DNA of 12,824 nucleotides from a virus (IMGVR_UViG_2740892209_000012), one strand, 5' to 3'. Shown: positions 1 to 12,824, counted from the first letter of the stretch. Translations and numbers: made by a program. Notes: generated from the sequence alone by a model not told the origin.

Positions 1-170
1 GTTAAGCATCCACAGGCTGGTATCTGCAACCGATTATAACGGATGCTTAACGTAATGCGTGAAGTATGGACATATTTTATCAATTAGTGTTTTTTGCCGT
101 TTCATAATGTTTCAGATTGTTCATTATGTTTTTGATTATCAACGGATTTGCTATTTTCCTTGTTTCAGCT

Positions 171-227
171 TGTTTCACGTTGTAGCGCTTTGTGCAACGA
201 TCGGTGTAGTTAATGGTGTAGTTAATT
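171..227. repeat. attL: left copy of attachment-site direct repeat
   Basis: 192-227 matches 11247-11282 at 35 of 36 positions; similarity extends to 171-183 vs 11226-11238, with a divergent 8-bp patch between. Core contains tandem GGTGTAGTTAAT x2 (203-226). Confidence 0.75.
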
Positions 228-1478
228 GTGATGACCGGAATCAAAATTATGCGCAGAGCACTTAACAAACTGAGTGATACACAGCTAAGGAAAATCAACG
301 GCACACCCGCCCAAAAAACAGCCTTTCTTAATGACGGTGGAAACCTGAGCGTCAGGCATTCAACCAGCGGCCTTTTAACCTGGTATTTCACCTACAGGGC
401 CGGAACGGGAAGGGGAGCACGACCGGAACGGATTAAGCTGGGAAATTATCCTGATCTGAGTCTGAAAGCTGCCAGGGAAAAAGCGGCACAGTGTCGCGCT
501 TGGCTTGCTGAGGGGAAAAATCCACGTCATGAGATGAATTACACCGTACAGAAAGCGTTAAAGCCCGTAACGGTTGGCGATGCGCTTACCTACTGGCTTG
601 AGTCTTACGTAAAGGAAAACCGCGTGGATTATGCCGCCCTGAAAAAGCGCCTTAATAATCACGTAATACAGCACATTGGTGCTATGCCGCTGGATAAATG
701 CGAGCTACGGCACTGGCTGGCCTGTTTTGACCAGGTGGCAAAGCGAACGCCTGTTACTGCCGGATTCTTGCTACAGACGTGCAAACAGGCGCTTAAGTTC
801 TGCCGGAGGCGGCGCTATGCAATCAGCAACGTTCTTGATGATATGAGTGTGGCGGACGTTGGGAAAAAACCGGATATAAGCGAGCGTGTCTTAAGCACCA
901 AAGAACTTGGCGAATTATTGCAGGCACTGGACAAAAAAATATTTTCCCCTTACTACGTCGCACTAATCCGCCTCCTGATTGTTTTCGGATGCCGGACGGT
1001 AGAACTGAGGTTATCGGAGATCAGCGAGTGGGATTTTACCGAAATGCTCTGGACCGTGCCGAAAGAACACAGCAAAACGAAGGTGGCAATATTCCGGCCC
1101 ATACCGGAAGCAATACTGCCGTTCGTCACGCAGCTGGTGGAGCAGAACAGGCACACGGGCTTATTGCTGGGGGAAGTGAAACAGGAAACAAGCGTGTCGC
1201 AGTACGGCAGATTAGCGCACAGGAGGCTAAAACACCCTCACTGGTCACTGCATGACATCCGGCGCACCTTTACAACGATGCTGAACGATTTAGGCGTGGA
1301 TCCTCACGTCGTGGAGCAGCTTACAGGTCATCAGATGCCAGGGATGCAACGAGTCTATAACCATTCCCGTTATCTGGATGCGAAACGTGACGCGCTGGAT
1401 ATGTGGACGGAGCGGTTAGGGATACTGGCGGGAACACATGAAAACGTAACCACATTGCCAATAGCCAGAGAAATATAA
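228..1478 (+). CDS. int: Tyrosine recombinase / integrase, P4-family type
   Basis: 416-codon ORF. N-terminal arm-binding-like pattern (LNDGGNLSVR, WYFTYR, IKLGNYPDLSL..AR) and C-terminal catalytic signature (LHDIRRTF, GH......Y) typical of P4-like integrases. Begins right after the attL core. Start uncertain: GTG 228, ATG 231 or ATG 249. Confidence 0.9.
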   Translation: MMTGIKIMRRALNKLSDTQLRKINGTPAQKTAFLNDGGNLSVRHSTSGLLTWYFTYRAGTGRGARPERIKLGNYPDLSLKAAREKAAQCRAWLAEGKNPRHEMNYTVQKALKPVTVGDALTYWLESYVKENRVDYAALKKRLNNHVIQHIGAMPLDKCELRHWLACFDQVAKRTPVTAGFLLQTCKQALKFCRRRRYAISNVLDDMSVADVGKKPDISERVLSTKELGELLQALDKKIFSPYYVALIRLLIVFGCRTVELRLSEISEWDFTEMLWTVPKEHSKTKVAIFRPIPEAILPFVTQLVEQNRHTGLLLGEVKQETSVSQYGRLAHRRLKHPHWSLHDIRRTFTTMLNDLGVDPHVVEQLTGHQMPGMQRVYNHSRYLDAKRDALDMWTERLGILAGTHENVTTLPIAREI

Positions 1479-1500
1479 TTTTTTTTGCGATTTTTCAGGA

Positions 1501-1560
1501 TGCGGACAACGTGAAACAACGAGACACAACGACGAACAACAAGGAACAAAATGGAACAAC
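1501..1560. repeat. Six tandem 10-bp units each ending ACAAC/ACAAA, exactly helically phased
   Basis: tgcggACAAC gtgaaACAAC gagacACAAC gacgaACAAC aaggaACAAA atggaACAAC, directly after the int stop; a second CA-rich phased array (ACACAA units) at 1761-1810 flanks the AT-rich alpA upstream region. Confidence 0.6.
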
Positions 1561-1843
1561 GGGTTAAAAATCAGCCATCGTAATAACCATTTGATTTTTA
1601 TAGGTGTACTGTTTTTTTATACACTGGCGAATCACTCTTAAAAATATGTAAAAAAGGCGTAAAAGTAAAATTTTATGCCTTTGCATCATAATGAATTAAA
1701 AGAGTTTTTATTCTCATTCCCCCTGCTTCTGTAAAACGACCGCCGCCAGTGTTTGCCATTCCACAAACACCCTGACACAATCCGACACAACCCAACCCAA
1801 TAATCCACCCAATGACTCTTTAAGAAACAACAAAGGGGGAATT

Positions 1844-2032
1844 GTGTTAAGCACAGATCGCTTTATACGTGAAAAAGAATGTCAGCAACTTACAGGCCTG
1901 AGCCGCTCATGTCGGTACCGCCTGGAAAAAGCCGGACAATTCCCATCACGGCGTAAGCTGGGCGGTCGTTCCGTTGGCTGGTCTTTATCCGAAGTTTTGG
2001 CATGGAAGGACAGCTGCGAGGCAGTTCACTAA
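1844..2032 (+). CDS. alpA: AlpA/Vis-family HTH regulator (excision and transcription activator type)
   Basis: 62-aa ORF with GTG start preceded by AAGGGGGA Shine-Dalgarno; FIREKECQQLTGLSRSCRYRLEKAGQFPSRRKLGGRSVGWSLSEVLAW matches the AlpA-type small HTH pattern; position immediately downstream of int as in Gram-negative PICIs. Confidence 0.8.
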   Translation: MLSTDRFIREKECQQLTGLSRSCRYRLEKAGQFPSRRKLGGRSVGWSLSEVLAWKDSCEAVH

Positions 2033-2084
2033 TCAGGCTGGCGGCACACAGCCGCCACCCATCCACTAATACAGAGATCTAACC

Positions 2085-3371
2085 ATGAATACTGGATATT
2101 CTCCCGAACAAGGGCGGGGCTTCGTTCGTCCTGAAAAACAGAATCTGCAAAATTTTGCCGAAATTATTCCGGTTATTTCCGGCCTTACTGGCGGGAGTGA
2201 AACCAATATTGTTAACGCCAGAGCGTTGCAGATGTTTGATGATAAAAAGGGAGTAAATTTAACTTACACCCCTGACGGCAATCAGAATATGAGCATTATC
2301 TCTGAGTCAGGTTTCTACAAACTAATAAAAACAAAAAGCGCCCCGTTGCCGGAGCGCCTTTGTGAACAATTAACCTACTGCGCAAAAAATGAATCTGAGC
2401 AGTGGGATTATATCAACCATGTGGAGAAGCGCCACAATTGCCGAATAACGGGCAAAACAAAGGCCACCCGCTACAGTGGCCCCTCGACACAAGCTACACG
2501 TTATCCCCAACGCATGAGCATTGCCAACAATGCCACATTTGCGGCTGGTGGGCAATGCAATCAGTCTGGTTCAGTTCGTTGCCATACCTGCAATGAGCGC
2601 TTTTCCCTGTACTCTTTAAGGAATTGCTCAAGGGCAAAAGCACATGGCGCGAATCTTTCTGATTCATGCTCTATCTTTCTGCGCCGTCTTTTCCGTGCCG
2701 GTGATAATGTTTTGGTCAATTCTTTATCGGTCATTGTGTTGTCCTGCATAGCAATGCGCCGTAGTTACTCACACCACGGCGCTGGTGATGGTTACTCCTG
2801 CTCTTTGGCCTTGCGGCGCTGGCGGCGTTTGATTTCGCCGCGCATGGCTGCGTTTATAAACTGTCCCGTGCTTTCGCCTTCTTCTTTCACGTTCTCCATG
2901 CCTTCAATAATTTCATGGGCAATACGTGCAGTTACAGATTGTGATTTTGCATTCTTTGGACCCGTTGCCATGTTTAACCCCTCATGTTTTTGGTGTAAGA
3001 CAATATACACGAAAAAAAAATATTTTGAAGGGTTGGCGTGTAAGACACCATTGTTTTACATTGTGTCTTACACCTTATTGATGAAAGGCACAGAAACGAC
3101 GAAACCCCGCACTGTAGGAGCAGTAACGGGGCTTCTAACCACCAACGATAGCAACAGTATCGAGGTAGCTATGAGAAATCATACCACACACCCGAAAGGG
3201 CGGGACTCGCACAACCTGAATAAATACATCTGGCGTTTTATCGCCCTGAGCACGGCACAACCGCGCGTGATTACCATTGAGGCCACCAGCGAACAGGAAG
3301 CACGCCAGCAATCTCCGGCTGGCTGCGTGATGGTATTTGCTGCCCGTATTCGTCAGGGGGTAGGCTTATGA
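2085..3371 (+). CDS. Questionable 428-codon open frame; probably not one gene. Only the N-terminal ~85 codons look protein-like (BRO-N/antirepressor-like ISESGFYKLI motif)
   Basis: No stop for 1287 nt, but the central part is Cys/Ser/Arg/Leu-rich junk-like translation, runs antisense to a well-supported small minus-strand gene (2792-2971), and reads through an AT-rich operator/promoter region (2993-3080). The 3' end coincides with the Icd-like ORF starting at 3171. Confidence 0.2.
   Translation: MNTGYSPEQGRGFVRPEKQNLQNFAEIIPVISGLTGGSETNIVNARALQMFDDKKGVNLTYTPDGNQNMSIISESGFYKLIKTKSAPLPERLCEQLTYCAKNESEQWDYINHVEKRHNCRITGKTKATRYSGPSTQATRYPQRMSIANNATFAAGGQCNQSGSVRCHTCNERFSLYSLRNCSRAKAHGANLSDSCSIFLRRLFRAGDNVLVNSLSVIVLSCIAMRRSYSHHGAGDGYSCSLALRRWRRLISPRMAAFINCPVLSPSSFTFSMPSIISWAIRAVTDCDFAFFGPVAMFNPSCFWCKTIYTKKKYFEGLACKTPLFYIVSYTLLMKGTETTKPRTVGAVTGLLTTNDSNSIEVAMRNHTTHPKGRDSHNLNKYIWRFIALSTAQPRVITIEATSEQEARQQSPAGCVMVFAARIRQGVGL
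2324..2357 (-). terminator. Candidate intrinsic terminator for leftward transcription
   Basis: Stem GCGCCCCG (2338-2345) / CGGAGCGC (2350-2357), loop TTGC; on the minus strand it is followed by TTTTTGTTTTTATT (complement of 2324-2337). Confidence 0.35.
2792..2971 (-). CDS. Small basic hypothetical protein (59 aa), candidate autoregulated regulator
   Basis: Minus-strand ATG at 2971 preceded by GAGGGG Shine-Dalgarno (6-nt spacing); protein-like K/E-rich composition (MATGPKNAKSQSVTARIAHEIIEG...KRRQRRKAKEQE); promoter-like -35 TTCAAA / -10 TATATT upstream with a GTGTAAGACA operator-like repeat overlapping the -10/start region. Confidence 0.5.
   Translation of the reverse strand: MATGPKNAKSQSVTARIAHEIIEGMENVKEEGESTGQFINAAMRGEIKRRQRRKAKEQE
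2993..3073. promoter_or_regulatory. Divergent promoter/operator region with three GTGTAAGACA half-sites
   Basis: GTGTAAGACA at 2993-3002; perfect 11-bp inverted repeat GTGTAAGACAC (3038-3048) / GTGTCTTACAC (3063-3073) with a 14-bp spacer; lies between the minus-strand small gene and the plus-strand Icd-like ORF; -35-like TTTACA at 3055-3060 on the plus strand. Confidence 0.55.
3171..3371 (+). CDS. Icd-like small protein (host cell division inhibitor-like family seen in P1/P4-type immunity regions)
   Basis: ATG 3171 preceded by GAGG (5-nt spacing); 66 aa; the YIWRFIALSTAQPRVITIEATSEQEARQQSPAGCVMVFAARIR pattern resembles recalled Icd-like proteins; stop overlaps the next start (ATGA at 3368-3371). 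Confidence 0.45.
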   Translation: MRNHTTHPKGRDSHNLNKYIWRFIALSTAQPRVITIEATSEQEARQQSPAGCVMVFAARIRQGVGL

Positions 3372-3598
3372 GCCAGGAAATCACACTACAACAGGCAGCA
3401 GAACGCGCCCACCAAATCGAAGTTATTTGCGCACTGGCAGAGGATTACCCTAGCATGATGACCGACAGCGAATCAGGGGCAATCATCGGCTTACTTAAAC
3501 GCCTTAGCGGTGAGGTCTGCGTATTCCTGAGCGATGAACAGGAAAGAAGAACGCTTATTTCTAACGAAAAAAAATGCGGAGGGGTACATGTGCAATAA
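3368..3598 (+). CDS. Hypothetical protein (76 aa)
   Basis: ATG 3368 with GGGGG Shine-Dalgarno; ATGA overlap with the upstream ORF; overlaps the next ORF start by 11 nt. Confidence 0.55.
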   Translation: MSQEITLQQAAERAHQIEVICALAEDYPSMMTDSESGAIIGLLKRLSGEVCVFLSDEQERRTLISNEKKCGGVHVQ

Positions 3599-3818
3599 AA
3601 CCACACCGGACGCAGCAGAAGAAGCAATGCAAATACTGATACGTGCGCTCGTTGATGTTACCCACATGGTGGAGATTATGGAGAGAAAATCACAGTCGGA
3701 GCACGACAAAAGAAAACTTAAAACAATAAAAATAATTGCCAAAAACTCGCTGATAAAAGTTACAGACATCCTTAATGAGGACATTAAAAGAATAAGGGAG
3801 AAAATTTGTGATGCATAA
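3588..3818 (+). CDS. Hypothetical small protein (76 aa) in AT-rich segment
   Basis: ATG 3588 preceded by GCGGAGGGG Shine-Dalgarno; the ORF track extends it upstream to 3534 but the Shine-Dalgarno supports 3588; helical K/E/I-rich composition. Confidence 0.5.
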   Translation: MCNKTTPDAAEEAMQILIRALVDVTHMVEIMERKSQSEHDKRKLKTIKIIAKNSLIKVTDILNEDIKRIREKICDA

Positions 3819-4038
3819 AATCCCTTTTGAAGTATTAATCCACTCTGAAAACGCATTAATTAAAGCACGCGAAATGAATGCGTTGTTAATTAAATTAATT
3901 GAAGTGCCGGAAGGTGGCGAAGATCATTCATCATTAATGTTTGCCGCTGTTCAGACATTATTGACACCTGTTATTGATGAACTCAATAAGGCTATGGCAA
4001 TTCACGAGAATAATAAAGCGCCCCACACCGGAGAATAA
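3808..4038 (+). CDS. Hypothetical small protein (about 75 aa) in AT-rich segment
   Basis: GTG 3808 / ATG 3811 preceded by AGGGAG; overlaps the stop of the previous ORF (3816-3818); acidic helical composition. Confidence 0.5.
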   Translation: MMHKIPFEVLIHSENALIKAREMNALLIKLIEVPEGGEDHSSLMFAAVQTLLTPVIDELNKAMAIHENNKAPHTGE

Positions 4039-4043
4039 AAATA

Positions 4044-4343
4044 ATGAAACTTAAATATTCTGGCTTAACTGCCAGTGGCAAAACTCGCACTAAATTCATG
4101 CGCGGTGATATTTACCGCGACCAGTACGGCGGCACGGTAATGATTAAGGGCGTGGAGGAACGGCGCGTAACCTACCGTCGTGAAGGCTACGAATATGATT
4201 GCGTGATGCCTGTTTATCAGTTCGATCGTGATTTTTCTCTGGTGCAGGCCGTACCGCGTAACGTGCCCACCAGCAGGGAGAAAGCACGCGCCAATATTCA
4301 GGAAATAAAAAAGATGCTTAACGTATTCAGGGGTAAGAAATGA
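4044..4343 (+). CDS. Hypothetical basic protein (99 aa), translationally coupled to the primase gene
   Basis: ATG 4044 with GGAGA Shine-Dalgarno; stop TGA 4341-4343 overlaps the primase ATG 4340 (ATGA). Confidence 0.65.
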   Translation: MKLKYSGLTASGKTRTKFMRGDIYRDQYGGTVMIKGVEERRVTYRREGYEYDCVMPVYQFDRDFSLVQAVPRNVPTSREKARANIQEIKKMLNVFRGKK

Positions 4344-6088
4344 AACTGGCACCGAACGTAAAAAAACAACCACGCGGAATAAAACACAAAGACACAGAGG
4401 TAATTATTTTCGCGGGTAGTGATGCGTGGTCACATGCAAAACAGTGGCAGGAGCAGGACGGCCCCGCATCCGGCGATAATGTGCCGCCTGTGTGGCTTGG
4501 GCCAAATCAGCTTGCCGAACTTGATGCGCTGAAAATTGTTCCGGATGGGAAAAAGCGCGTAAGGCTGTACCAGGCCGGAGAACTGGATTTGGTGGAGACC
4601 AAAAAGATTGGTCAGAAGCTGGCGGCGGCAGATATTCAGGACGCAAATTTTTACCCCGAAGGAATGCACGTCCAGAAGTGTGAAAACTGGCGGCGCTATC
4701 TGAATGCTGAGCGTGAAAATATTGCCGCAGGGCTTACCATGCCGGAGCAGAAAAATACGCAACTGGCACAAATGGCAGACAGTGAGCGCGCGCAGCTGCT
4801 TGCCGAGCGCTTTGATGGCGTTTGTGTGCATCCTGAAAGTGAAATCGTTCACGTATGGCGCGGCGGGGTATGGTGTCCGGTCAGCACAATGGAGCTGAGC
4901 CGCGAAATGGTGGCGATCTATTCAGAGCACAGGGCCACTTTCAGCAAGCGCGTAATCAATAACGCCGTGGAAGCGTTAAAAGTTATTGCCGAACCAATGG
5001 GCGAGCCGTCCGGCTATTTGCTGCCGTTCGCCAATGGTGCGCTTGACCTGAAAACGGGGGAATTTTCCCCGCACACGCCGGAGAACTGGATCACCACGCA
5101 CAACGGCATTGAGTACACGCCACCAGCACCAGGGGAGAACATCCGCGATAACGCGCCAAACTTTCATAAATGGCTTAAGCACGCAGCCGGAAAAGACCCG
5201 CGCAAGATGATGCGTATATGTGCCGCGCTGTACATGATTATGGCGAACCGGTACGACTGGCAGATGTTTATTGAGGCCACCGGAGACGGCGGGAGCGGTA
5301 AAAGTACATTCACACACATAGCCAGCCTTCTGGCAGGGAAACAGAACACGGTAAGCGCTGAAATGACATCGCTTGATGATGCTGGTGGACGTGCGCAGGT
5401 TGTCGGGAGTCGTCTTATCGTCCTGGCTGACCAGCCGAAATATACAGGCGAAGGAACGGGCATCAAGAAAATCACGGGCGGTGACCCCGTGGAAATTAAC
5501 CCGAAATACGAAAAGCGTTTCACGGCTGTAATCAGGGCGGTGGTGCTGGCGACCAACAATAACCCGATGATATTCACCGAACGGGCCGGAGGTGTGGCAC
5601 GTCGTCGCGTGATTTTCCGTTTCGACAATATCGTCAGTGAGGCCGAAAAAGACAGGGAGCTACCGGAAAAGATCGCGGCTGAAATCCCTGTCATTATCCG
5701 CCGATTGCTGGCGAACTTTACCGACCCTGAGAAGGCACGGGCTTTACTACTGGAACAGCGTGACGGTGATGAAGCACTGGCAATAAAGCAACAGACGGAT
5801 CCGGTTATTGAGTTTTGCCAGTTCCTGAATTTTCTGGAGGAAGCGCGCGGCCTGATGATGGGGGGCGGTGGCGATTCAGTGAAGTACACGACCAGGAACA
5901 GCCTTTACCGCGTCTATCTGGCGTTTATGGCATACGCAGGCAGGAGCAAACCGCTAAACGTAAATGACTTTGGAAAGGCTATGAAGCCTGCCGCAAAAGT
6001 TTACGGACATGAATATATTACGCGGAAAGTTAAGGGGGTAACGCAGACTAACGCAATAACAACAGACGAGTGCGACGCGTTTTTATAA
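4340..6088 (+). CDS. Primase/replication initiator with D5_N-like and SF3-helicase P-loop domains (P4 alpha C-terminal type; PICI pri-rep-like)
   Basis: 582-aa ORF; FANGALDLKTGEF motif (D5_N-like), Walker A GDGGSGKST, Walker B-like RLIVLADQ; immediately followed by an iteron array. Confidence 0.9.
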   Translation: MKLAPNVKKQPRGIKHKDTEVIIFAGSDAWSHAKQWQEQDGPASGDNVPPVWLGPNQLAELDALKIVPDGKKRVRLYQAGELDLVETKKIGQKLAAADIQDANFYPEGMHVQKCENWRRYLNAERENIAAGLTMPEQKNTQLAQMADSERAQLLAERFDGVCVHPESEIVHVWRGGVWCPVSTMELSREMVAIYSEHRATFSKRVINNAVEALKVIAEPMGEPSGYLLPFANGALDLKTGEFSPHTPENWITTHNGIEYTPPAPGENIRDNAPNFHKWLKHAAGKDPRKMMRICAALYMIMANRYDWQMFIEATGDGGSGKSTFTHIASLLAGKQNTVSAEMTSLDDAGGRAQVVGSRLIVLADQPKYTGEGTGIKKITGGDPVEINPKYEKRFTAVIRAVVLATNNNPMIFTERAGGVARRRVIFRFDNIVSEAEKDRELPEKIAAEIPVIIRRLLANFTDPEKARALLLEQRDGDEALAIKQQTDPVIEFCQFLNFLEEARGLMMGGGGDSVKYTTRNSLYRVYLAFMAYAGRSKPLNVNDFGKAMKPAAKVYGHEYITRKVKGVTQTNAITTDECDAFL

Positions 6089-6102
6089 TTTTTTGTAATT
6101 GC

Positions 6103-6328
6103 TGTCTACCCTGTCTACCTGAGTAAAGAAAAATACATTTAATTCAGTGCATTAAGTTAGGTAGATAGCCTTTTTTTACTGTCTACCCACTATCTACCCT
6201 CTCTACCTGATTTTACCTGAATCAGACAGGGAGGTAGACACGGGGTAGATAGTGGATAAAAGCACTCTACCCCGCTGAAAGCCGCGCCATTACTGGCATG
6301 AGGGCCACTAAGGTAGATAAGGTAGACA
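6103..6328. repeat. Iteron-type replication origin
   Basis: About 11 copies of TGTCTACC / TATCTACC / CTCTACC and the inverse GGTAGACA / GGTAGATA in both orientations (e.g. 6103-6110, 6112-6119, 6160-6168, 6180-6188, 6191-6199, 6233-6240, 6244-6252, 6312-6319, 6321-6328) around an AT-rich spacer, directly downstream of the replication protein gene. Confidence 0.7.
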
Positions 6329-6376
6329 AGGGGAGGCACAACTCAAAACTTTTTAAACGAGGGGGTAAAAATAAAT

Positions 6377-6538
6377 ATGCACACTTCAGGGAAATTTAAT
6401 AAATCACTCAAAAAACGCAGAGACAGAACAGAACCGAAATATCGCGCGTTAGACATGACAGAGCACGCTTTAAAGGTGGCAATCAGAACGATAGACCGCC
6501 ACGCGGGGGAGGATACGCGAAAGCACATCCCGAACTGA
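6377..6538 (+). CDS. Possible small basic protein (53 aa), below the ORF-track size cutoff
   Basis: ATG 6377 preceded by GAGGGGG; a second 34-codon ORF (6550-6654) ends in an ATGA overlap with the ssb start. Both are speculative. Confidence 0.3.
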   Translation: MHTSGKFNKSLKKRRDRTEPKYRALDMTEHALKVAIRTIDRHAGEDTRKHIPN

Positions 6539-6650
6539 TAAGCGCATTCATGACCACGACGGCGGCAAATTTTGCCACGCTGACAGAGCGGGAGATTGCC
6601 GAAGCGGAACAGGTAACAACCATCAACGTTAAAACCGGAGAGGTGGAATC

Positions 6651-7073
6651 ATGACAGCACAGATAGCAGCTTACGGGCGGCTGGTGGACGACCCGCAGGT
6701 AAAACAGACCAGCAAGGGCACACCGATGACGCTGGCGCGTATGGCGGTCCCCCTTCCGTGCAGCCAGGCAGATGACGGAACGGCGACGATGTGGTTATCC
6801 GTCCTGGCATTTGGCAGACAGGCCGAAGCACTGGAAAGGCACCGCAAGGGTGAACTCCTGAGCGTGGCGGGTAACATGCAGATCAGCCAGTCGACTGGGC
6901 AGAACGGAGAAACGCGGCAGGGCTGGCAGGTTATCGCAGACAGTGTAATCAGTGCGCGAACGGCGCGACTGGGCGGCAAAAAAGGTCAACAGGGCCAGGC
7001 TACTGACGCGCTGAACAGGGCAAAACAACAGGCGGGGAATGATGATCCGTACGGGGATAACATACCGTTTTAA
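6651..7073 (+). CDS. Single-stranded DNA-binding protein-like (short SSB with acidic C-terminal tail)
   Basis: 140 aa; OB-fold-like N-terminus (GRLVDDPQVKQTSKG...) and C-terminal DDPYGDNIPF resembling the SSB acidic tail ending in IPF; followed by a strong terminator. Confidence 0.75.
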   Translation: MTAQIAAYGRLVDDPQVKQTSKGTPMTLARMAVPLPCSQADDGTATMWLSVLAFGRQAEALERHRKGELLSVAGNMQISQSTGQNGETRQGWQVIADSVISARTARLGGKKGQQGQATDALNRAKQQAGNDDPYGDNIPF

Positions 7074-7080
7074 GCGACGA

Positions 7081-7102
7081 GAGACAGAAGCCGGAGCAAT
7101 CC
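7081..7102 (+). terminator. Rho-independent terminator after ssb
   Basis: GCCGGA-GCAA-TCCGGC hairpin followed by TTTTTT. Confidence 0.7.
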
Positions 7103-7160
7103 GGCTTTTTTACGGGTCCTCCTGGCGGGGTGGGCCTGAACACGGGGCGGGAAGCGCGGA
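7103..7160 (+). other. Degenerate cos-like sequence (pseudo-cosQ/cosN), paralogous to the 9530-9606 region
   Basis: ACGGGTCCTCCTGG followed by GGGCGGGAAGCG (8 of 12 matches to cosN) and CGG-AAAAAAGCG; the preceding hairpin is near-identical to the one at 9530-9545. Confidence 0.35.
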
Positions 7161-7286
7161 AAAAAGCGCATTTTTGTGATTTTATCGTCATCATCATCAT
7201 GAGCGTAATTTATTGTTTTTAATTGTTTTGATGCAAAAAAGATGATGGTTGTGGTTAATTTTCGTTCGACATCTTTGCAGGCAGAT

Positions 7287-7327
7287 AAAAAAGCCCGATA
7301 AGGTCAGAGGTGGCTTATCGGGCTTTT
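7287..7327. terminator. Bidirectional-looking stem-loop (10-bp stem) flanked by A-run and T-run
   Basis: GCCCGATAAG (7293-7302) / CTTATCGGGC (7314-7323), with AAAAAA upstream and TTTT downstream. Confidence 0.45.
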
Positions 7328-7422
7328 GCATATGAGGCTTTTTGGTGCACTGACACACATGAGCGGGATCATCATTTCATAATTTGCAACACAACTCAAT
7401 ATCATTGCACAAAACGCAATCC

Positions 7423-7453
7423 TGATTATAATCAGAGCTGGATGAACATCCAG
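7423..7453. promoter_or_regulatory. Two adjacent palindromes upstream of the capsid operon (candidate operator/activator sites)
   Basis: Perfect palindrome TGATTATAATCA (7423-7434) and CTGGATG-AA-CATCCAG (7438-7453), about 35 bp upstream of the ATG at 7489. Confidence 0.35.
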
Positions 7454-7488
7454 TTATGATTTTTTAAGTCGAAGAGGAATTTCTTACT

Positions 7489-7695
7489 ATGGCTGAAGAG
7501 AAAAAAGGCGGTGTTTCGGTGTACATAAGCCCCGAAATCGTGGAGGTGCTCAAGCAGCGCCACAAAAAAAACTATGAGGCTGGCGTGGCGGCTGGACTGG
7601 ATCCGCTGATGACGCCGGAGCCGTCGATAGGTTCACTTGTACGCTCTTATTTACTTGCGGCGCTTGGGATGCATAAAAATTATGGGGGTGAATAA
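7489..7695 (+). CDS. Small hypothetical protein (68 aa), possibly ribbon-helix-helix-like, first gene of the capsid operon
   Basis: ATG 7489 with AGAGGA upstream; GVSVYISPEIVEVLKQ resembles an RHH beta-strand/helix start; stop overlaps the MCP start (TAATG). Confidence 0.55.
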   Translation: MAEEKKGGVSVYISPEIVEVLKQRHKKNYEAGVAAGLDPLMTPEPSIGSLVRSYLLAALGMHKNYGGE

Positions 7696-8750
7696 TGGCA
7701 GGCAAAGCAACGGCACTTAACACTAACCAGCTTTTCATGTACCTGAATCGCGGGGATATTGCGGATTTTAAATTCAGCCCTCTGTTTACTACGCTGTTTT
7801 TCCCGAACGTGGCGACATTCAGCACGCAAAACATCATGCTGGATACCCTGGACATTGAAGAAGTCACCATGTCGGCGTTTTGTTCGCCTATGGTGGGTAG
7901 CCAGGTTCAGCGCGATAAAGGGTACGAAACCAGCACGATTAAACCTGGCTACATGAAGCCAAAGCACGAAATCGATCCAACGAAAACCATCATGCGCATG
8001 GCTGGAGAAGATCCGGCACAGCTTAACGACCCTACCTATCGCCGTATGCGCCTGATTACTGGCAATATGCGCCGCCAGATAAACGCCATAAAAGCGCGCG
8101 TGGAATGGCTGGCGGTAAATGCGGTAACGACCGGAAAAAACATCATTGAGGGCGAAGGCATAGAGCGCTATGAAATCGACTGGAAGATACCGGAAAAAAA
8201 CATCATAGAGCAGGCCGACGGGAAAAAATGGTCAGAGCAGGACAAAGAAACCCACGATCCAATCTATGATATCGAACTATACGCCGATCAGGCTGGTTGC
8301 CCCGCAAACGTCATGATTATGGGCGCTGAGGTATGGCGAACGTTACGCAGCTTTAAAAAATTCCGTGAGCTGTACGATCTTTCCCGTGGTTCAGAATCCG
8401 CCGCCGAACTGGCCTGTAAAAACCTGGGCGAAGTGGTGAGCTTTAAAGGCTATCTTGGTGATCTGGCCCTTATCGTCTATTCCGGCAAATACACTGACAG
8501 CGATGGTACCGAAAAATATTTCCTTGAGCCTGATTTGCTGGTCCTGGGCAACACCAACAATAAAGGGCTGGTGGCCTATGGTGCGATAATGGATCAGGAA
8601 GCGGTAAGAACGGGCGCAACACAAAACATGTTTTACCCGAAAAACTGGATTGAGGACGGCGATCCGGCGATTGAGTACGTGCAGACGCACAGCGCACCGC
8701 AGCCGGTTCCGGCAGATATTCGCAAATTTGTTACCGTCAAAATTGGTTAA
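7695..8750 (+). CDS. Major capsid protein, lambda gpE-like
   Basis: 351 aa; multiple blocks align with recalled lambda E (FKFSPLF..LFF, PGYMKPKHE, EDPAQLNDPTYRRMR, WSEQDK..HDP, RSFK, LVLGNT..GL..YG, YPKNW...GDPA, SAP). Confidence 0.9.
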   Translation: MAGKATALNTNQLFMYLNRGDIADFKFSPLFTTLFFPNVATFSTQNIMLDTLDIEEVTMSAFCSPMVGSQVQRDKGYETSTIKPGYMKPKHEIDPTKTIMRMAGEDPAQLNDPTYRRMRLITGNMRRQINAIKARVEWLAVNAVTTGKNIIEGEGIERYEIDWKIPEKNIIEQADGKKWSEQDKETHDPIYDIELYADQAGCPANVMIMGAEVWRTLRSFKKFRELYDLSRGSESAAELACKNLGEVVSFKGYLGDLALIVYSGKYTDSDGTEKYFLEPDLLVLGNTNNKGLVAYGAIMDQEAVRTGATQNMFYPKNWIEDGDPAIEYVQTHSAPQPVPADIRKFVTVKIG

Positions 8751-8761
8751 CGGGGGATTCT

Positions 8762-9097
8762 ATGGACACTCCATACATTGAGTTATTTGCAGGCAGTCAG
8801 CAGGTCGCCACGACGCTGGTACATTTTGCCGCTGATGCTGGCGTTATTCAGGAATTTACCCCGCTGATGCTGGCGGACAATGGCGAGTTTAAGCCGTGGG
8901 ATGGTAAGGAATCTGGCAAGGCTGTTTATCTGACCTCGTACCCTGTGGACACGTCAAAGCAGAAATCAGCACAGTGTTACAAGACGGGGATATTCAATAT
9001 TGCCGCCGTTAACTGGCCTGAGAGCGTCGACACCGATGCGAAAAAATGCGCCGCCTTTGCGGGTTCCGGCGTATCCGTTCAGCCGCTGGCCCGATAA
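8762..9097 (+). CDS. Head decoration protein, lambda gpD-like
   Basis: 111 aa; C-terminal YKTGIFNIAAVNWPESVDTDAKKCAAFAGSGVSVQ resembles lambda D ([34 protein letters not shown]); GGGGGA Shine-Dalgarno; lies downstream of the E-like gene (order reversed relative to lambda). Confidence 0.8.
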   Translation: MDTPYIELFAGSQQVATTLVHFAADAGVIQEFTPLMLADNGEFKPWDGKESGKAVYLTSYPVDTSKQKSAQCYKTGIFNIAAVNWPESVDTDAKKCAAFAGSGVSVQPLAR

Positions 9098-9109
9098 GCA
9101 GGGGGAACG

Positions 9110-9523
9110 ATGGCAACGAATGAAAGCATCATGACGCTACCGCTGGCGAGTAAATTTAAAGCCGAAGCGCGGGCAATGGCTGACAGAGGTTTATCAACCT
9201 ATGAGGCCGTATATCAACTAAACAAACTGGAAGAGCAGGACAAGCCGCGCGCTGATGCGATTATGGCGCTTCATGAGCATAAAGACTATCAGCCGCTGTT
9301 GCGTGCAATGGCAAACGTGCCTTGTATCGATGTTGGTACGGCTAAAAGCATCCTTAGCATGACCATAGAGCAGGAGCGCCCAAAGGTTGCACCAGAGCTT
9401 ACCGCAGCCTTTGAAAACTTTATGGACATGCACAGCCCGCAAGCCGTATCAGCTGGCATGGCATACGATGGCAGAAACCAGGGCGATGACGGCGACATCG
9501 ATCGCATACTGAAAACCATCTGA
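9110..9523 (+). CDS. Hypothetical protein (137 aa), last gene of the capsid operon
   Basis: ATG 9110 with AGGGGGAA Shine-Dalgarno; protein-like composition; followed by a strong terminator. No family recognised. Confidence 0.7.
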   Translation: MATNESIMTLPLASKFKAEARAMADRGLSTYEAVYQLNKLEEQDKPRADAIMALHEHKDYQPLLRAMANVPCIDVGTAKSILSMTIEQERPKVAPELTAAFENFMDMHSPQAVSAGMAYDGRNQGDDGDIDRILKTI

Positions 9524-9529
9524 GACAAG

Positions 9530-9552
9530 GCCGGAGAAATCCGGCTTTTTTT
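9530..9552 (+). terminator. Rho-independent terminator immediately upstream of cos
   Basis: GCCGGA-GAAA-TCCGGC hairpin followed by TTTTTTT. Confidence 0.7.
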
Positions 9553-9640
9553 ACGGGTCCTTTCCGGCATATGGACCCGTTACGGGGCGGCGACCTCGCG
9601 GTTTTTCGCTATTTATGAGCCTTTTCAGGGGGGTGGTGGT
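9553..9640 (+). other. Lambda-type cohesive end site (cosQ-cosN-proximal cosB), forward orientation
   Basis: ACGGGTCCTTTCCGG (cosQ-like, matches recalled lambda right end), GTTACG then GGGCGGCGACCT (9585-9596, identical to the lambda 12-nt cohesive end), then CGCGGTTTTTCGCTATTTATGA (near-identical to the lambda left end start); located about 135 bp upstream of the Nu1-like gene. Confidence 0.8.
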
Positions 9641-9729
9641 GGTTTTGTTGTTTGCTCTATCTTTATGAATGAAAAGGGAAAGATGCAAACAATACACCAA
9701 CCTGAAGCAGTAATTAAGTTGGTGTATTA

Positions 9730-10272
9730 ATGAAATCGCACCTGATGAACAAAAAAAACATGGCGAAAAGCTGCCGTGTAAGTGCGACAGCGTTCGACAA
9801 GTGGGGAGTGACTCCCGTTGAACGTAAAGGCCGTGAGGCGTTTTACGATGTTGCCAGCGTGATAGACAATAGGGTTAACAATGCAATTAGCCAGCTTACA
9901 AACGACAAAGGCGATATTGATGATGATGAACTCTTACGAGTCAGGATCAGATTACTGACAGCACAGGCGGAGGCGCAGGAACTTAAAAACGAGCGCGATC
10001 GCGGTGACGTGATTGATACTGAGTTTTGCCTGTACGCGCTTTCAAAGCTGGCGAGTCAGATTTCATCAATCATGGACAGCCTCCCGCTTACTATGCAAAG
10101 GAGCTTCCCACAGATTACCCCCGCCATGCTGGATAGGCTTAAAAGGGAAGTGGTTAAAGCCTGTAATGCCAGTGCCAGAGTTGCCGACAACCTCCCACAG
10201 ATACTGGCTGATTACTTGAAAGAAACAACCGGAAACGTACCGGAAAAGTTGCTACAGAAGAAAGGCGAGTAA
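9730..10272 (+). CDS. Terminase small subunit, lambda Nu1-like
   Basis: 180 aa; LTAQAEAQELKNERDRGDVIDTEFCLYALSKLASQISSIMDSLPLTMQRSFPQ aligns with recalled lambda Nu1 (LTRAQADAQELKNARDSAEVVETAFCTFVLSRIAGEIASILDGLPLSVQRRFPE); the N-terminal NKK... region matches the Nu1 N-terminus; start may be ATG 9730 or ATG 9745. Confidence 0.85.
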   Translation: MKSHLMNKKNMAKSCRVSATAFDKWGVTPVERKGREAFYDVASVIDNRVNNAISQLTNDKGDIDDDELLRVRIRLLTAQAEAQELKNERDRGDVIDTEFCLYALSKLASQISSIMDSLPLTMQRSFPQITPAMLDRLKREVVKACNASARVADNLPQILADYLKETTGNVPEKLLQKKGE

Positions 10273-10274
10273 CA

Positions 10275-10500
10275 GACGCGCAATTATTGAACAAAACTGA
10301 GAAACGACATGAAAGCGTCATAAATCGCCATTTTAGATGATTACCGTGTCGTTTCTTTTTATTGTGTATCTATTTAAAAACAAATAGTTATGTTCGAGAA
10401 GTACCGACATGCTTTTTCCAGAAAAATTTTCATAAACAGATAAAAACCGCGAGGTCGCCGCCCCGTAACGGGCCATAATTCCAGGAAGGACCCGACGACA
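10275..10500 (-). other. Second lambda-type cos site in inverted orientation with extended lambda-like cosB
   Basis: The reverse complement reads cosQ-like CGGGTCCTTCCTGG, then GTTACG-GGGCGGCGACCT-CGCGGTTTTT (cosN on plus strand at 10452-10463), then TTTATGAAAATTTTT, CATAACTATTTGTTTTTAAATAGATA, AAAAAGAAACGACACGG and GTCGTTTCTCAGTTTTG, mirroring recalled lambda cosB blocks (R3/R2/R1 region). It shares a 36-bp inverted repeat with cos1 (9571-9606 vs 10442-10477, 1 mismatch). Confidence 0.7.
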
Positions 10501-10527
10501 CCAGACTATCAGAACGATGGGGGCACA

Positions 10528-10809
10528 ATGACAGAAGCCGAAATACTGCGATTAATCCGCCGCGTTGCCGGAATCAGCCAGCAGGCCGACGAACAGACCA
10601 CGCAGCCGGACAGCGTGACCGCCGAAAATTATGTTCGTGTGGTTGCTGAGGTGATTCGCCGTAATGGTATCCAGCTTAATGATGTGGATATGCGCAACAT
10701 ACGGATCCGCGTTCTTGAAATGCTGGCCTACAATCGCCGCGTGGCACTGTATCGGGAAACGGAGAAAATTACGTACCACTGGAAGAAGCCGGAGCGGTTG
10801 CGGCGGTAA
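10528..10809 (+). CDS. Hypothetical protein (93 aa)
   Basis: ATG 10528 with GGGGG Shine-Dalgarno; protein-like composition; starts 28 bp beyond the cos2 cosQ-like end. No family recognised. Confidence 0.6.
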   Translation: MTEAEILRLIRRVAGISQQADEQTTQPDSVTAENYVRVVAEVIRRNGIQLNDVDMRNIRIRVLEMLAYNRRVALYRETEKITYHWKKPERLRR

Positions 10810-10810
10810 C

Positions 10811-10977
10811 TGGTTGATATTTTCGAAATTCGCCAGCGGCGAACATCGGGGAAACCAGCCTAACCCGTTGATATTTTCGGGAACCTCAAATTGAAGAGGT
10901 CGGAAACATAACCCGTCATATTCTGGATGCTGATAATTACCACGCAGCCCATTAAGGCCTAACCCGTTGATTCTTCC
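10811..10977. repeat. Four direct repeats of a TAACCCGTTGATATTTTCGG-like unit at roughly 50-bp spacing (candidate integrase arm-type sites)
   Basis: Copies at 10811-10825 (partial), 10859-10880, 10907-10926 and 10957-10977, in the noncoding arm adjacent to attR. Confidence 0.45.
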
Positions 10978-11225
10978 ACAATCCCCCATTGGGGGAGGCT
11001 GGGCGGCCTGCTGTGGGCTTTTCCACCATTGGTGGAAAGGCGCACATCTGGATCATCATTACGGTGATCAAGGGTATGTAAAACCCACCAGCCTGATTGA
11101 CATTTAACCGGAAAAAAGCCAGGTAGCCCCGTTATGGGGATCCCCATATCGACATTAACGCCCCTCATGAATTGGCGCGCTTCCCCCTGGAAAGATGACC
11201 CGCCTGTATATTTCTTGTGTCTATT

Positions 11226-11282
11226 TGTTCCACGTTGTTTCATACAGTGCAACGATCGGTGTAGTTAATGGTGTAGTCAATT
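11226..11282. repeat. attR: right copy of attachment-site direct repeat
   Basis: 11247-11282 matches 192-227 (35 of 36); the upstream block 11226-11238 matches 171-183. Confidence 0.75.
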
Positions 11283-11363
11283 TGCGATTTTTAGCACTTT
11301 TTGCAGTGCAAATCATTTAATTAAATCAATGGCTTGCCTTGATGTAGTGATAAAAGGACATAT

Positions 11364-12824
11364 TTATTCATCTTTCGGCGCAGAATGCTGGCGACCAAAA
11401 ATCACCTCCATCCGCGCACCGCCCAGCATGCTCTCTCCGGCGACGATTTTACCCTCATATTGCTCGGTGATTTCGCGGGCTACCGCCAGCCCCACACCTT
11501 GCCCAGGGCGTAAAGTATCAACCCGTTGACCACGGTCGAAAATGACCTCTCGCTTGCTTAATGGAATACCGGGGCCATCATCCTCGACCACAATATAGAG
11601 ATGCTCGTCGGTTTGCCTTGCAGAAATTTCGACAAACTCGAGGCAATATTTACAGGCGTTATCCAGCACGTTGCCCATCACTTCGACAAAATCGTTCTGC
11701 TCACCAACAAAGCTGATTTCTGGCGAGATATCGAGAGAGATATTGACCCCTTTGCGTTGATACACTTTGTTCAGCGCCGAGGTGAGATTGTCCAACAGTG
11801 GCGCGACCGGATGCAGCTCGCGGCTAAGCAATGTCCCGCCGCGCATACTGGCACGATGCAGGTAGTAGCCAATTTGCTGTGAAATGCGGCTGATTTGCTC
11901 CAGCATTACCGGCTCAGCATCACTGACGCTCATCTTCTCACTACGCAGAGAACGCAGCGTACTTTGCAGCACCGCCAGTGGCGTTTTCAGACTATGGGTC
12001 AGGTCGGTGAGCGTTGTACGATATTTGTCGTAACGTTCGCGTTCACTTTTTAACAGTCGGTTCAGGTTTCGTACCAGACTGGTCAGTTCTCGCGTTGTGG
12101 CTGGATTGAGCAATTCACGGTTATGTTCTTCCAGTTCGCGGACTTCTTTTGCCAGGGCTTCGATGGGGCGTAAACTCCACCAGGCGGCGACCCACAGCAG
12201 CGGGATCACTAACAGCAGATTGGCTGAGAGCACATAGATAAACCAGCTCCAGACCATATAGGAACTTTTTAGCTCCACCGGAATGGTATCCACCACCACA
12301 ATGGTTAACTTTGGCATCCGCGATGTTGCCGGGTAGACGTTTACCGCCACCGAGTGGGTCATCTCCGCGTCGTCATCATCTTCCCGCACTTCCTGCAACT
12401 GTTGCTGTATCGAATGATCTCCACTCAGCAAGAGGCTGGTATCGTTAACATCCGCTTCAATTTCATGAAAACCATTCGATTTCAGCCAGTCAGGCTGGAT
12501 CATCTTCATCAGCCAGGGCACGTCACGTTGCGCCCATAAAAGCTGCCCGTTCTCATCATAAATTAGTGTCATCGTGGGGCTTTGCTTGTCGATATTTTCG
12601 GGTAACTCGACATGCAACTTATTGTTTTCCCACTTCGCAAGGGTATAGAACAGATTGCTCTCGCCACGTAACAGCCGAAACGTGGTTTTATCGAAACTGA
12701 CGCTATAACCGATCAGCGCAACCATTCCGTAGGCAAGCGAAAGCACCAATACTACTGCTGCCGTTGCTAACAGAAAACGTACCCGCAGCGAGAGCGGGAA
12801 AAAAAGATGCAGTAATTTTTTCAT
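11364..12824 (-). CDS. phoQ: Sensor histidine kinase PhoQ (PhoP/PhoQ two-component system), complete
   Basis: 486-aa product matching recalled E. coli PhoQ essentially throughout: N-terminal transmembrane segment, periplasmic acidic patch [11 protein letters not shown], second transmembrane segment, H-box [15 protein letters not shown]-binding boxes DDGPGIP and [12 protein letters not shown]; start codon at the window edge (12822-12824). Confidence 0.97.

Follow-up and report, generated by a model that had tools for sequence, protein, structure and literature searches.

The stretch of DNA analysed here, a 12.8-kb window (12,824 nucleotides) from the viral sequence IMGVR_UViG_2740892209_000012, holds a complete PICI (phage-inducible chromosomal island, a phage parasite) of the E. 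coli EcCICFT073 type (68–11365, plus strand). This 11.3-kb island has at each end a direct copy of the 10-bp att core GGACATATTT (68–77 and 11356–11365), a sequence found twice in the window against 0.03 copies expected, and it occupies the ycfD(roxA)–phoQ site, with phoQ at the right edge of the window. Both the core and the ycfD–phoQ site are listed for EcCICFT073 (PMC6092414 Table S1). The genes encode a tyrosine integrase, small regulators, a DUF4222 protein, the pri-rep product, an SSB, a major capsid protein and a head decoration protein, and make this a unidirectional island of the int-alpA-pri-rep kind, inserted at an att site that is specific to PICIs; site and gene order are the same in HM670 and CFT073. 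The replication module comprises the pri-rep gene (4340–6088, plus strand), the intergenic region that separates this ORF from the next gene (6089–6376) and the island SSB gene (6651–7073, plus strand; Pfam SSB, 1.1e-13; phrog_44, 4e-35). The origin region, as we shall call the sequence between rep and the next gene, is 100% identical in several E. coli chromosomes, including that of HM670, where the island lies between roxA (ycfD) and phoQ. A match to it is present in 565 of 5426 complete E. coli genomes (~10%), at up to four places in one genome, and is always chromosomal; matches in the plasmid collection are rare (three records), and phage records searched with this sequence yielded none.

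Other parts of the island show features of their own. The gene that follows the origin region (6377–6660) lacks one nucleotide of the run GGGGGAAGG (~6509) by comparison with HM670 and Shigella, and its product is 53 residues long here versus 92 residues for the protein annotated in HM670/Shigella. The upstream early-gene region differs from that of EcCICFT073: in the window, 2085–3371 is taken up by a 428-aa ORF, an Ant/Icd-like fusion with an Ant/Bro-like N-terminal match and a C-terminal Icd-like cell-division-inhibitor domain, whereas in CFT073 and HM670 this place is occupied by a number of small genes, one of them an Icd-like gene of 66 aa. Two non-coding segments derive from phages. The first (7107–7276) shares 87–90% identity with the unannotated region between Rz and the small terminase gene in Stx and VT1-Sakai phages, which is where lambdoid cos sites lie, and the second (10376–10469) is 90% identical to the cos/terminase region of phage 21; they may be a pair of cos-like sites that serve different helpers. 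Duplex stability in the window is lowest at 10351–10391, beside the phage-21-like cos segment, and 10807–11528, near the right end of the island, contains five exact IHF-consensus sites (WATCAANNNNTTR), the whole window having six against 0.62 expected.

The iteron array downstream of pri-rep

Eleven iterons of 9–10 bp, with the consensus CTRTCTACCY and the core TCTACC, occupy 6102–6329, six on the plus strand and five on the minus strand, when matches to the 10-mer CTRTCTACCY with at most two mismatches are listed. Adjacent copies start 9 or 11 bp apart, approximately one helical turn, and the first iteron begins 14 nt past the pri-rep stop codon. The initial annotation had described about eleven repeats in both orientations at 6103–6328, immediately after the pri-rep gene, and it had both the coordinates and the count right, as well as the position (ORF end at 6088, first iteron at 6102). 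The repeats far exceed what chance would give. TCTACC occurs 13 times on the two strands of the whole window versus 2.81 expected, a count reached in none of 200 shuffles, and 11 of these copies lie inside 6105–6326, those outside the array being only two isolated hexamers at 998 and 12332. The longer motif T[ACG]TCTACC is found ten times in the 12.8-kb window, always within 6103–6328, against 0.43 expected and a maximum of three in shuffled sequence. No second iteron cluster was found anywhere in the complete island. That the array is a chance cluster or a low-complexity artefact can be dismissed in view of these ten exact matches versus 0.43 expected and of the conservation of the cores across 51 alleles and in several genera.

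The order of the elements is as follows. Iterons 1 and 2 (CTGTCTACCC and CTGTCTACCT; 6102–6111 and 6111–6120, plus strand) are direct copies that overlap by one base. They are followed by a 40-bp AT-rich stretch (6120–6159; 22.5% GC), which is presumed to be the DNA unwinding element by analogy with the SaPI/PICI model (PMC6092414, PMC9371898). This stretch holds the least stable 41-mer of 6080–6380 (dG −44.6, versus a window mean of −56.6 and an sd of 4.4), and its duplex stability ranks eighth lowest in the whole window. Iteron 3 (CTATCTACCT; 6159–6168) is on the minus strand and is followed by three direct plus-strand copies, iterons 4 to 6 (CTGTCTACCC, CTATCTACCC and CTCTCTACCT; 6179–6188, 6190–6199 and 6199–6208), whose starts are 11 and 9 bp apart. 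Then come iterons 7 and 8 on the minus strand (GTGTCTACCT and CTATCTACCC; 6232–6241 and 6243–6252), iteron 9 on the plus strand (CACTCTACCC; 6263–6272), which is the most divergent copy, and iterons 10 and 11 on the minus strand (TTATCTACCT and TTGTCTACCT; 6311–6320 and 6320–6329). The plus strand of 6089–6208, hereafter the left module, thus starts with a T-tract and a pair of direct iterons, continues with the AT-rich stretch and a single inverted iteron and ends, after a 10-bp spacer, with three direct iterons; the spacer that corresponds in position on the right-hand side of the array (6273–6310) is GC-rich. The earlier picture of repeats around an AT-rich spacer therefore holds as far as the spacer is concerned, which is real, but the spacer is off-centre, with two iterons on its left and nine on its right.

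Conservation extends to two blocks that are not iterons, a GC-rich block (CTGAAAGCCGCGCCATTACTGGCATGA; 6275–6301) and the tract AAAACTTTTTAAAC (6345–6358) that follows the last iteron pair. Both are nearly invariant across 51 distinct E. coli-type origin alleles and are also present in the Klebsiella pKP187 remnant described below. In the alignment of these alleles, 45 of 66 iteron-core columns are invariant versus 37 of 222 other intergenic columns, and the conservation of the iteron cores is comparable to that of the last 60 nt of rep.

Scans for other signals were largely negative. Between 5900 and 6700, no terminator was predicted, and transcription therefore probably reads through the array. 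Such read-through, the location of the array between rep and the next gene and the fact that iterons in many replicons also serve autoregulation would all suit repeats that act mainly as operators for the SSB/capsid genes or for rep, bound by Rep itself or by a regulator such as AlpA, rather than as an origin. However, the promoter scan of 5900–6700 returned a single weak promoter-like match, located on the minus strand and not in excess of what shuffled sequence yields, the architecture is that of P4 ori and of SaPI-type origins, and the homologous region of CFT073 behaves as an origin. We therefore regard a purely regulatory array as very unlikely; a regulatory role could be additional to the origin function, not a replacement for it. 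Single-strand DNA folding of 6255–6345 revealed no hairpin on either strand (z-scores of +1.07 and −0.98), so the GC-rich block is not an obvious priming hairpin. The Rfam scan of the whole window gave no family, and the region is therefore not a known RNA, and no IHF consensus occurs in the array. The only candidate DnaA box, an 8/9 match at 6251–6259 (in GTGGATAAAAG, 6252–6262), was rejected: it is at chance level, the window having six such matches versus 2.7 expected, and it is not conserved in other alleles. The 11-mer GTGGATAAAAG is also found, identical, at the end of P4 crr (record L013, ~4280–4290), which we treat as a coincidence for the same two reasons.

The Rep protein and the EcCICFT073 origin

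The 582-aa product of pri-rep is an SF3 helicase-type initiator, with D5_N (8.7e-16), DUF5906 P-loop (5.1e-10) and C-terminal Pox_D5 (7.7e-5) matches in Pfam, a Walker A motif (GDGGSGKS) and further matches to phrog_864 (2.5e-170) and TIGR01613 (1.2e-31). Residues 186–430 match the SaPI5 PriRep structure (PDB 7OLA; E 6.6e-16). Residues 486–577 (5795–6070, plus strand) form a putative winged-helix origin-binding domain, which phmmer matches to the C-terminal origin-binding domain of P4 α (PDB 1KA8; E 6.8e-7) and which also gives a Pox_D5 match (2.9e-6) and a weak RFX_DNA_binding match (0.0077). Within this domain, residues 541–548 (VNDFGKAM; codons at 5960–5983, plus strand) include N542 and G545, which vary together with the two bases that precede the iteron core. 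In a low-confidence, single-sequence AlphaFold model of the domain (pLDDT 56.4), VNDFGKAM opens the helix 541–555, and this position would suit a helix that reads DNA.

No primase domain is detectable in Rep. Residues 1–147 (4340–4780) have no Pfam family, the only NCBIfam match of the protein is 'primase_Cterm', and in an alignment with P4 α the long N-terminal region of α, a Zn-ribbon/TOPRIM primase, is absent from Rep. The 'pri' of pri-rep is therefore a name only. Residues 1–147 are also the most mosaic segment of the protein, with 39–100% identity among alleles that are otherwise 81–100% identical. A search for homologous proteins with Rep returned only Reps that are 98–100% identical.

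The closest counterpart of this locus is one whose origin has already been described and tested, that of EcCICFT073 (Fillol-Salom et al. 2018, ISME J; PMC6092414). As presented in that paper, the origin of PICIs is the region directly 3' of the replication initiator gene, and its Fig. 2a, which covers a number of E. coli PICIs, shows the iterons as 'two sets flanking an AT rich region' (PMC6092414). In the experiment of Fig. 2b, a fragment carrying pri and ori of EcCICFT073 allowed the temperature-sensitive plasmid pKO3-blue to give colonies at 44 °C, the Δrep (Δpri) plasmid gave none, and the colonies obtained with the Δori plasmid are described as 'significantly reduced', in wording that does not state that they were abolished (PMC6092414). 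Our window shares with EcCICFT073 the ycfD/roxA–phoQ site, the att core GGACATATTT, the gene order and the AT-rich stretch; the origin regions are 94.8% identical over 401 bp, with few base changes inside iterons (for example GGTAGATAG versus GGTAGACAG), and each of the 11 iterons is at the same distance from the rep stop codon in both. The two Reps are 97–99% identical except in the N-terminal 140 residues (68%). Since the 11 offsets are the same and the Reps are so similar outside this N-terminal part, we conclude that the published and tested element has been re-identified in a close allele. The array is thus very probably the vegetative replication origin of an EcCICFT073-type PICI, a conclusion that we draw by sequence homology to a region whose function was tested in CFT073, and the same homology supports the initial claim that this iteron origin is served by the pri-rep protein encoded upstream. 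That such an array is an origin is already known, having been published in 2018; as an origin call, our result adds nothing new and amounts to a re-identification of the model origin of Gram-negative PICIs.

Resemblance to SaPI, plasmid and P4 origins

SaPI origins lie directly 3' of rep and contain 6–12 short iterons (5–6 nt) and an AT-rich region that has at least two iterons on each side in opposite directions, and the SaPI Reps bind the iterons via a C-terminal winged helix and are self-loading helicases (PMC9371898). The array resembles the origins of SaPIbov1, SaPI1 and SaPI5 in its place directly after rep, its short iterons, its AT-rich region and its SF3 Rep, which is homologous to the SaPI Reps as judged by the 7OLA match and the Walker A motif. 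Two plus-strand iterons flank the AT-rich stretch on the left, and on the right there is one minus-strand iteron and then further copies on both strands. There are also differences: the AT-rich region of SaPIs is near the middle of the origin, whereas here it is off-centre (two versus nine iterons), the iterons are 5–6 nt long in SaPIs versus 9–10 bp here, with no DNA similarity expected, and the C-terminal domain of Rep is by sequence of the P4 type, unlike that of SaPIs.

Classical iteron plasmids (F, P1, R6K, pPS10 and RK2) likewise have repeated initiator sites beside an AT-rich stretch, with the initiator encoded alongside. Their iterons, however, are 17–22 bp long and mostly in tandem direct orientation, their RepA/π/TrfA-type initiators have no helicase activity, and they need DnaA boxes and loading of the host DnaB. 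The present array has 9–10 bp iterons in both orientations and is served by a D5_N/DUF5906/Pox_D5 helicase. The first reading of the locus as a 'satellite/plasmid-type origin' is hence apt in its first half, as this is a satellite (PICI) origin that matches the published EcCICFT073 origin, but 'plasmid-type' was a loose term for iterons of this length in both orientations that are served by an SF3 helicase instead of an initiator of the RepA/π type.

The comparison with satellite phage P4 is more detailed. The P4 record places crr immediately downstream of α, as 2 × 120 bp with five type 1 repeats each, and ori 4.5 kb from crr, with α between them; both have TGTTCACC repeats. α reportedly binds the type I repeats, and crr is said to be required in cis. 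The likeness to our locus lies in the octamer-type iterons in both orientations (TGTCTACC here, TGTTCACC in P4), in the C-terminal domain of Rep, which is homologous to the α origin-binding domain (1KA8), and in the way a crr unit ends, with two inverted iterons and a AAAACTTTTT tract, which the right module of the array (6232–6358) resembles; an A-run/T-run tract like AAAACTTTTTAAAC also comes after the final pair of iterons in both P4 crr units. The differences are that the array has the iteron T(G/A)TCTACC, identical to the P4 type I iteron TGTTCACC at six of eight positions, that the two modules are contiguous and 3' of rep here, whereas ori and crr are 4.5 kb apart in P4, and that the crr unit is duplicated in P4 and single here. 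The iteron of P4 itself is used by relatives in Serratia and in IMG/VR, and loci L011 and L078 have ACTGTTCAC.

Read on the strand of α, P4 ori consists of a T-tract, two direct iterons, ~35 bp of AT-rich DNA, one inverted iteron, a 14-bp spacer and three direct iterons, and the left module follows this order. Its local alignment with P4 ori is collinear and scores 29, versus 16.8 ± 2.5 for dinucleotide shuffles, none of 500 of which scored as high, and the Serratia and Morganella relatives reach 43 and 41. The right module aligns weakly with a crr unit (20–22 versus 15.5 ± 2.1, with 5–19 of 500 shuffles as high), and this alignment is better in the relatives that share P4's iteron. In the cross-comparisons (left module with crr, right module with ori), the score was lower in every case, four of nine being nominally elevated (4–39 of 500 shuffles as high), all of them in relatives with P4's iteron. 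An equation of the whole array with P4 crr was tried and rejected, the alignment not being significant (22 versus 18.5 ± 2.4, with 31 of 300 shuffles as high); the comparison is informative only when made half by half. The right half thus resembles a P4 crr unit less securely than the left half resembles ori, as far as alignment can tell.

P4 itself suggests a different reading of the array, in which it would be only a crr-like accessory cluster of Rep sites that stimulates replication, with initiation taking place elsewhere. In P4, the element directly downstream of α is indeed crr and not ori, and the right half of the array has the likeness to a crr unit just described. We nevertheless consider this reading highly improbable, because the complete island contains no second iteron cluster, because the left half aligns with P4 ori itself, AT-rich stretch included, and because CFT073 rep and its putative ori together gave colonies with the temperature-sensitive plasmid at 44 °C in the experiment as described (PMC6092414). 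We tentatively read the PICI origin as a P4-ori-like and a crr-like module set side by side. Among the papers searched, we found none that makes this ori/crr comparison between P4 and a PICI origin, and we offer the ori-plus-crr reading as a side observation of modest novelty.

A mechanism can be proposed on this basis. After induction by a helper phage and excision, Pri-Rep would bind the 11 CTRTCTACCY iterons via its C-terminal winged-helix domain, as homology and co-variation suggest. The opposed iterons, at a spacing of 9–11 bp, would concentrate Rep on one face of the helix at the AT-rich stretch (6120–6159), where the DNA would melt and Rep would assemble as a self-loading hexameric SF3 helicase, by analogy with the SaPI and P4 models. 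The host replisome/polymerase, with the island SSB (6651–7073), would then copy the element. In this scheme, the left module (6089–6208) would be the equivalent of P4 ori and the right module (6232–6358) would probably act like crr, providing extra Rep sites in cis, which is the weaker part of the mechanism.

Covariation of iterons and Rep among relatives

We compared 90 loci, nine of them from E. coli genomes and the others from about 80 IMG/VR contigs and from Serratia and Morganella genomes; a scan of genome contigs with Rep gave three loci, and a scan of viral contigs with an alignment was far more productive. In all 90 (Rep identity 53–100%), a hexamer is repeated 6–11 times within 300 bp after rep. 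The layouts that we displayed are mostly that of the window, with a direct pair, the AT-rich stretch, one or two inverted iterons, two or three direct ones, further inverted and direct copies and a final inverted pair; reordered layouts occur at two loci (L073 and L075). What differs between groups is the iteron itself, which contains TCTACC, TGTTCAC, TGTTCAT or GTATACA, and which reads in its longer form CTRTCTACCY, CCYTCTACCY, ACTGTTCAC, RGTGTTCAT or GGTATACAT. One relative is a decayed PICI on an IncFIB plasmid, pKP187 of Klebsiella variicola (L095; NC_011282, 1036–3151), with a truncated integrase and a 128-aa ORF that corresponds to the C-terminal DNA-binding domain of Rep only; its origin is complete, with ten iterons and both conserved blocks.

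Across 55 distinct origins, the iteron class follows the Rep motif L-x-V-x1-x2-F-x3-KAM at residues 541–548. With Reps in which x1 is N and x3 is G, the dinucleotide TG or TA precedes 237 of 280 iterons and CC or CT precedes none; with A..S Reps, 228 of 287 iterons are preceded by CC, CT or CA, and none by TG. One locus whose Rep is only 70% identical (L073) still fits this rule. The N-terminal segment of Rep recombines freely between the two iteron classes, while the C-terminal motif and the iterons stay paired. A second switch, from the iteron GGTGTTCAT to GGTATACAT, goes with a change in the putative wing from KTRGVV to (K/R)(A/N)RGMV. In a group of IMG/VR loci (L080–L093), two sets of near-identical Reps have two or three differences in the putative wing, and their iterons differ in the central three bases, which makes GGTGTTCAT versus GGTATACAT a candidate natural specificity switch. 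Relative to P4 α, the C-terminal domains of the Reps with P4-like TGTTCA iterons are 43–52% identical versus 29–35% for the TCTACC Reps, and the helicase core is 53–58% identical in all Reps. Because the C terminus of Rep and the iterons are adjacent, co-inheritance alone could give much of this co-variation, and the main split between TG/TA and CC may represent few evolutionary events.

The pairing with Rep also bears on the idea that the array serves packaging, as a cos/pac site, or recombination, as a cluster of integrase arm sites or otherwise. Such sites also have repeats in both orientations, but the repeats co-vary with Rep and not with Int, the att cores are at 68 and 11356, the IHF sites cluster at 10807–11528 and none is in the array, and the cos-like segments are elsewhere (7107–7276 and 10376–10469); we give this idea almost no credence.

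For the array as a PICI origin, the comparisons lead us to a broader proposal, which we hold tentatively and would call quite possible: that the PICI origin is a P4-ori-like module fused to one crr-like module, that its specificity is set by a code in the winged helix of Rep (N542/G545 and the wing) and that the GC-rich block at 6275–6301 is a further site for a host factor or for Rep. In this code, as read from the sequence comparisons, N542/G545 would go with TG/TA-TCTACC, A/S at these positions would go with CC-TCTACC, and changes in the wing would go with GTGTTCAT versus GTATACAT. The architectural link between PICIs and P4 bears on whether they share a replication module by descent. The iteron variants that are paired with variants of the Rep C terminus could guide specificity swaps and the design of orthogonal PICI-based delivery vectors. 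If the proposal is true, these pairs would mark out groups of distinct replication specificity, which would allow several islands to live side by side in the same cell.
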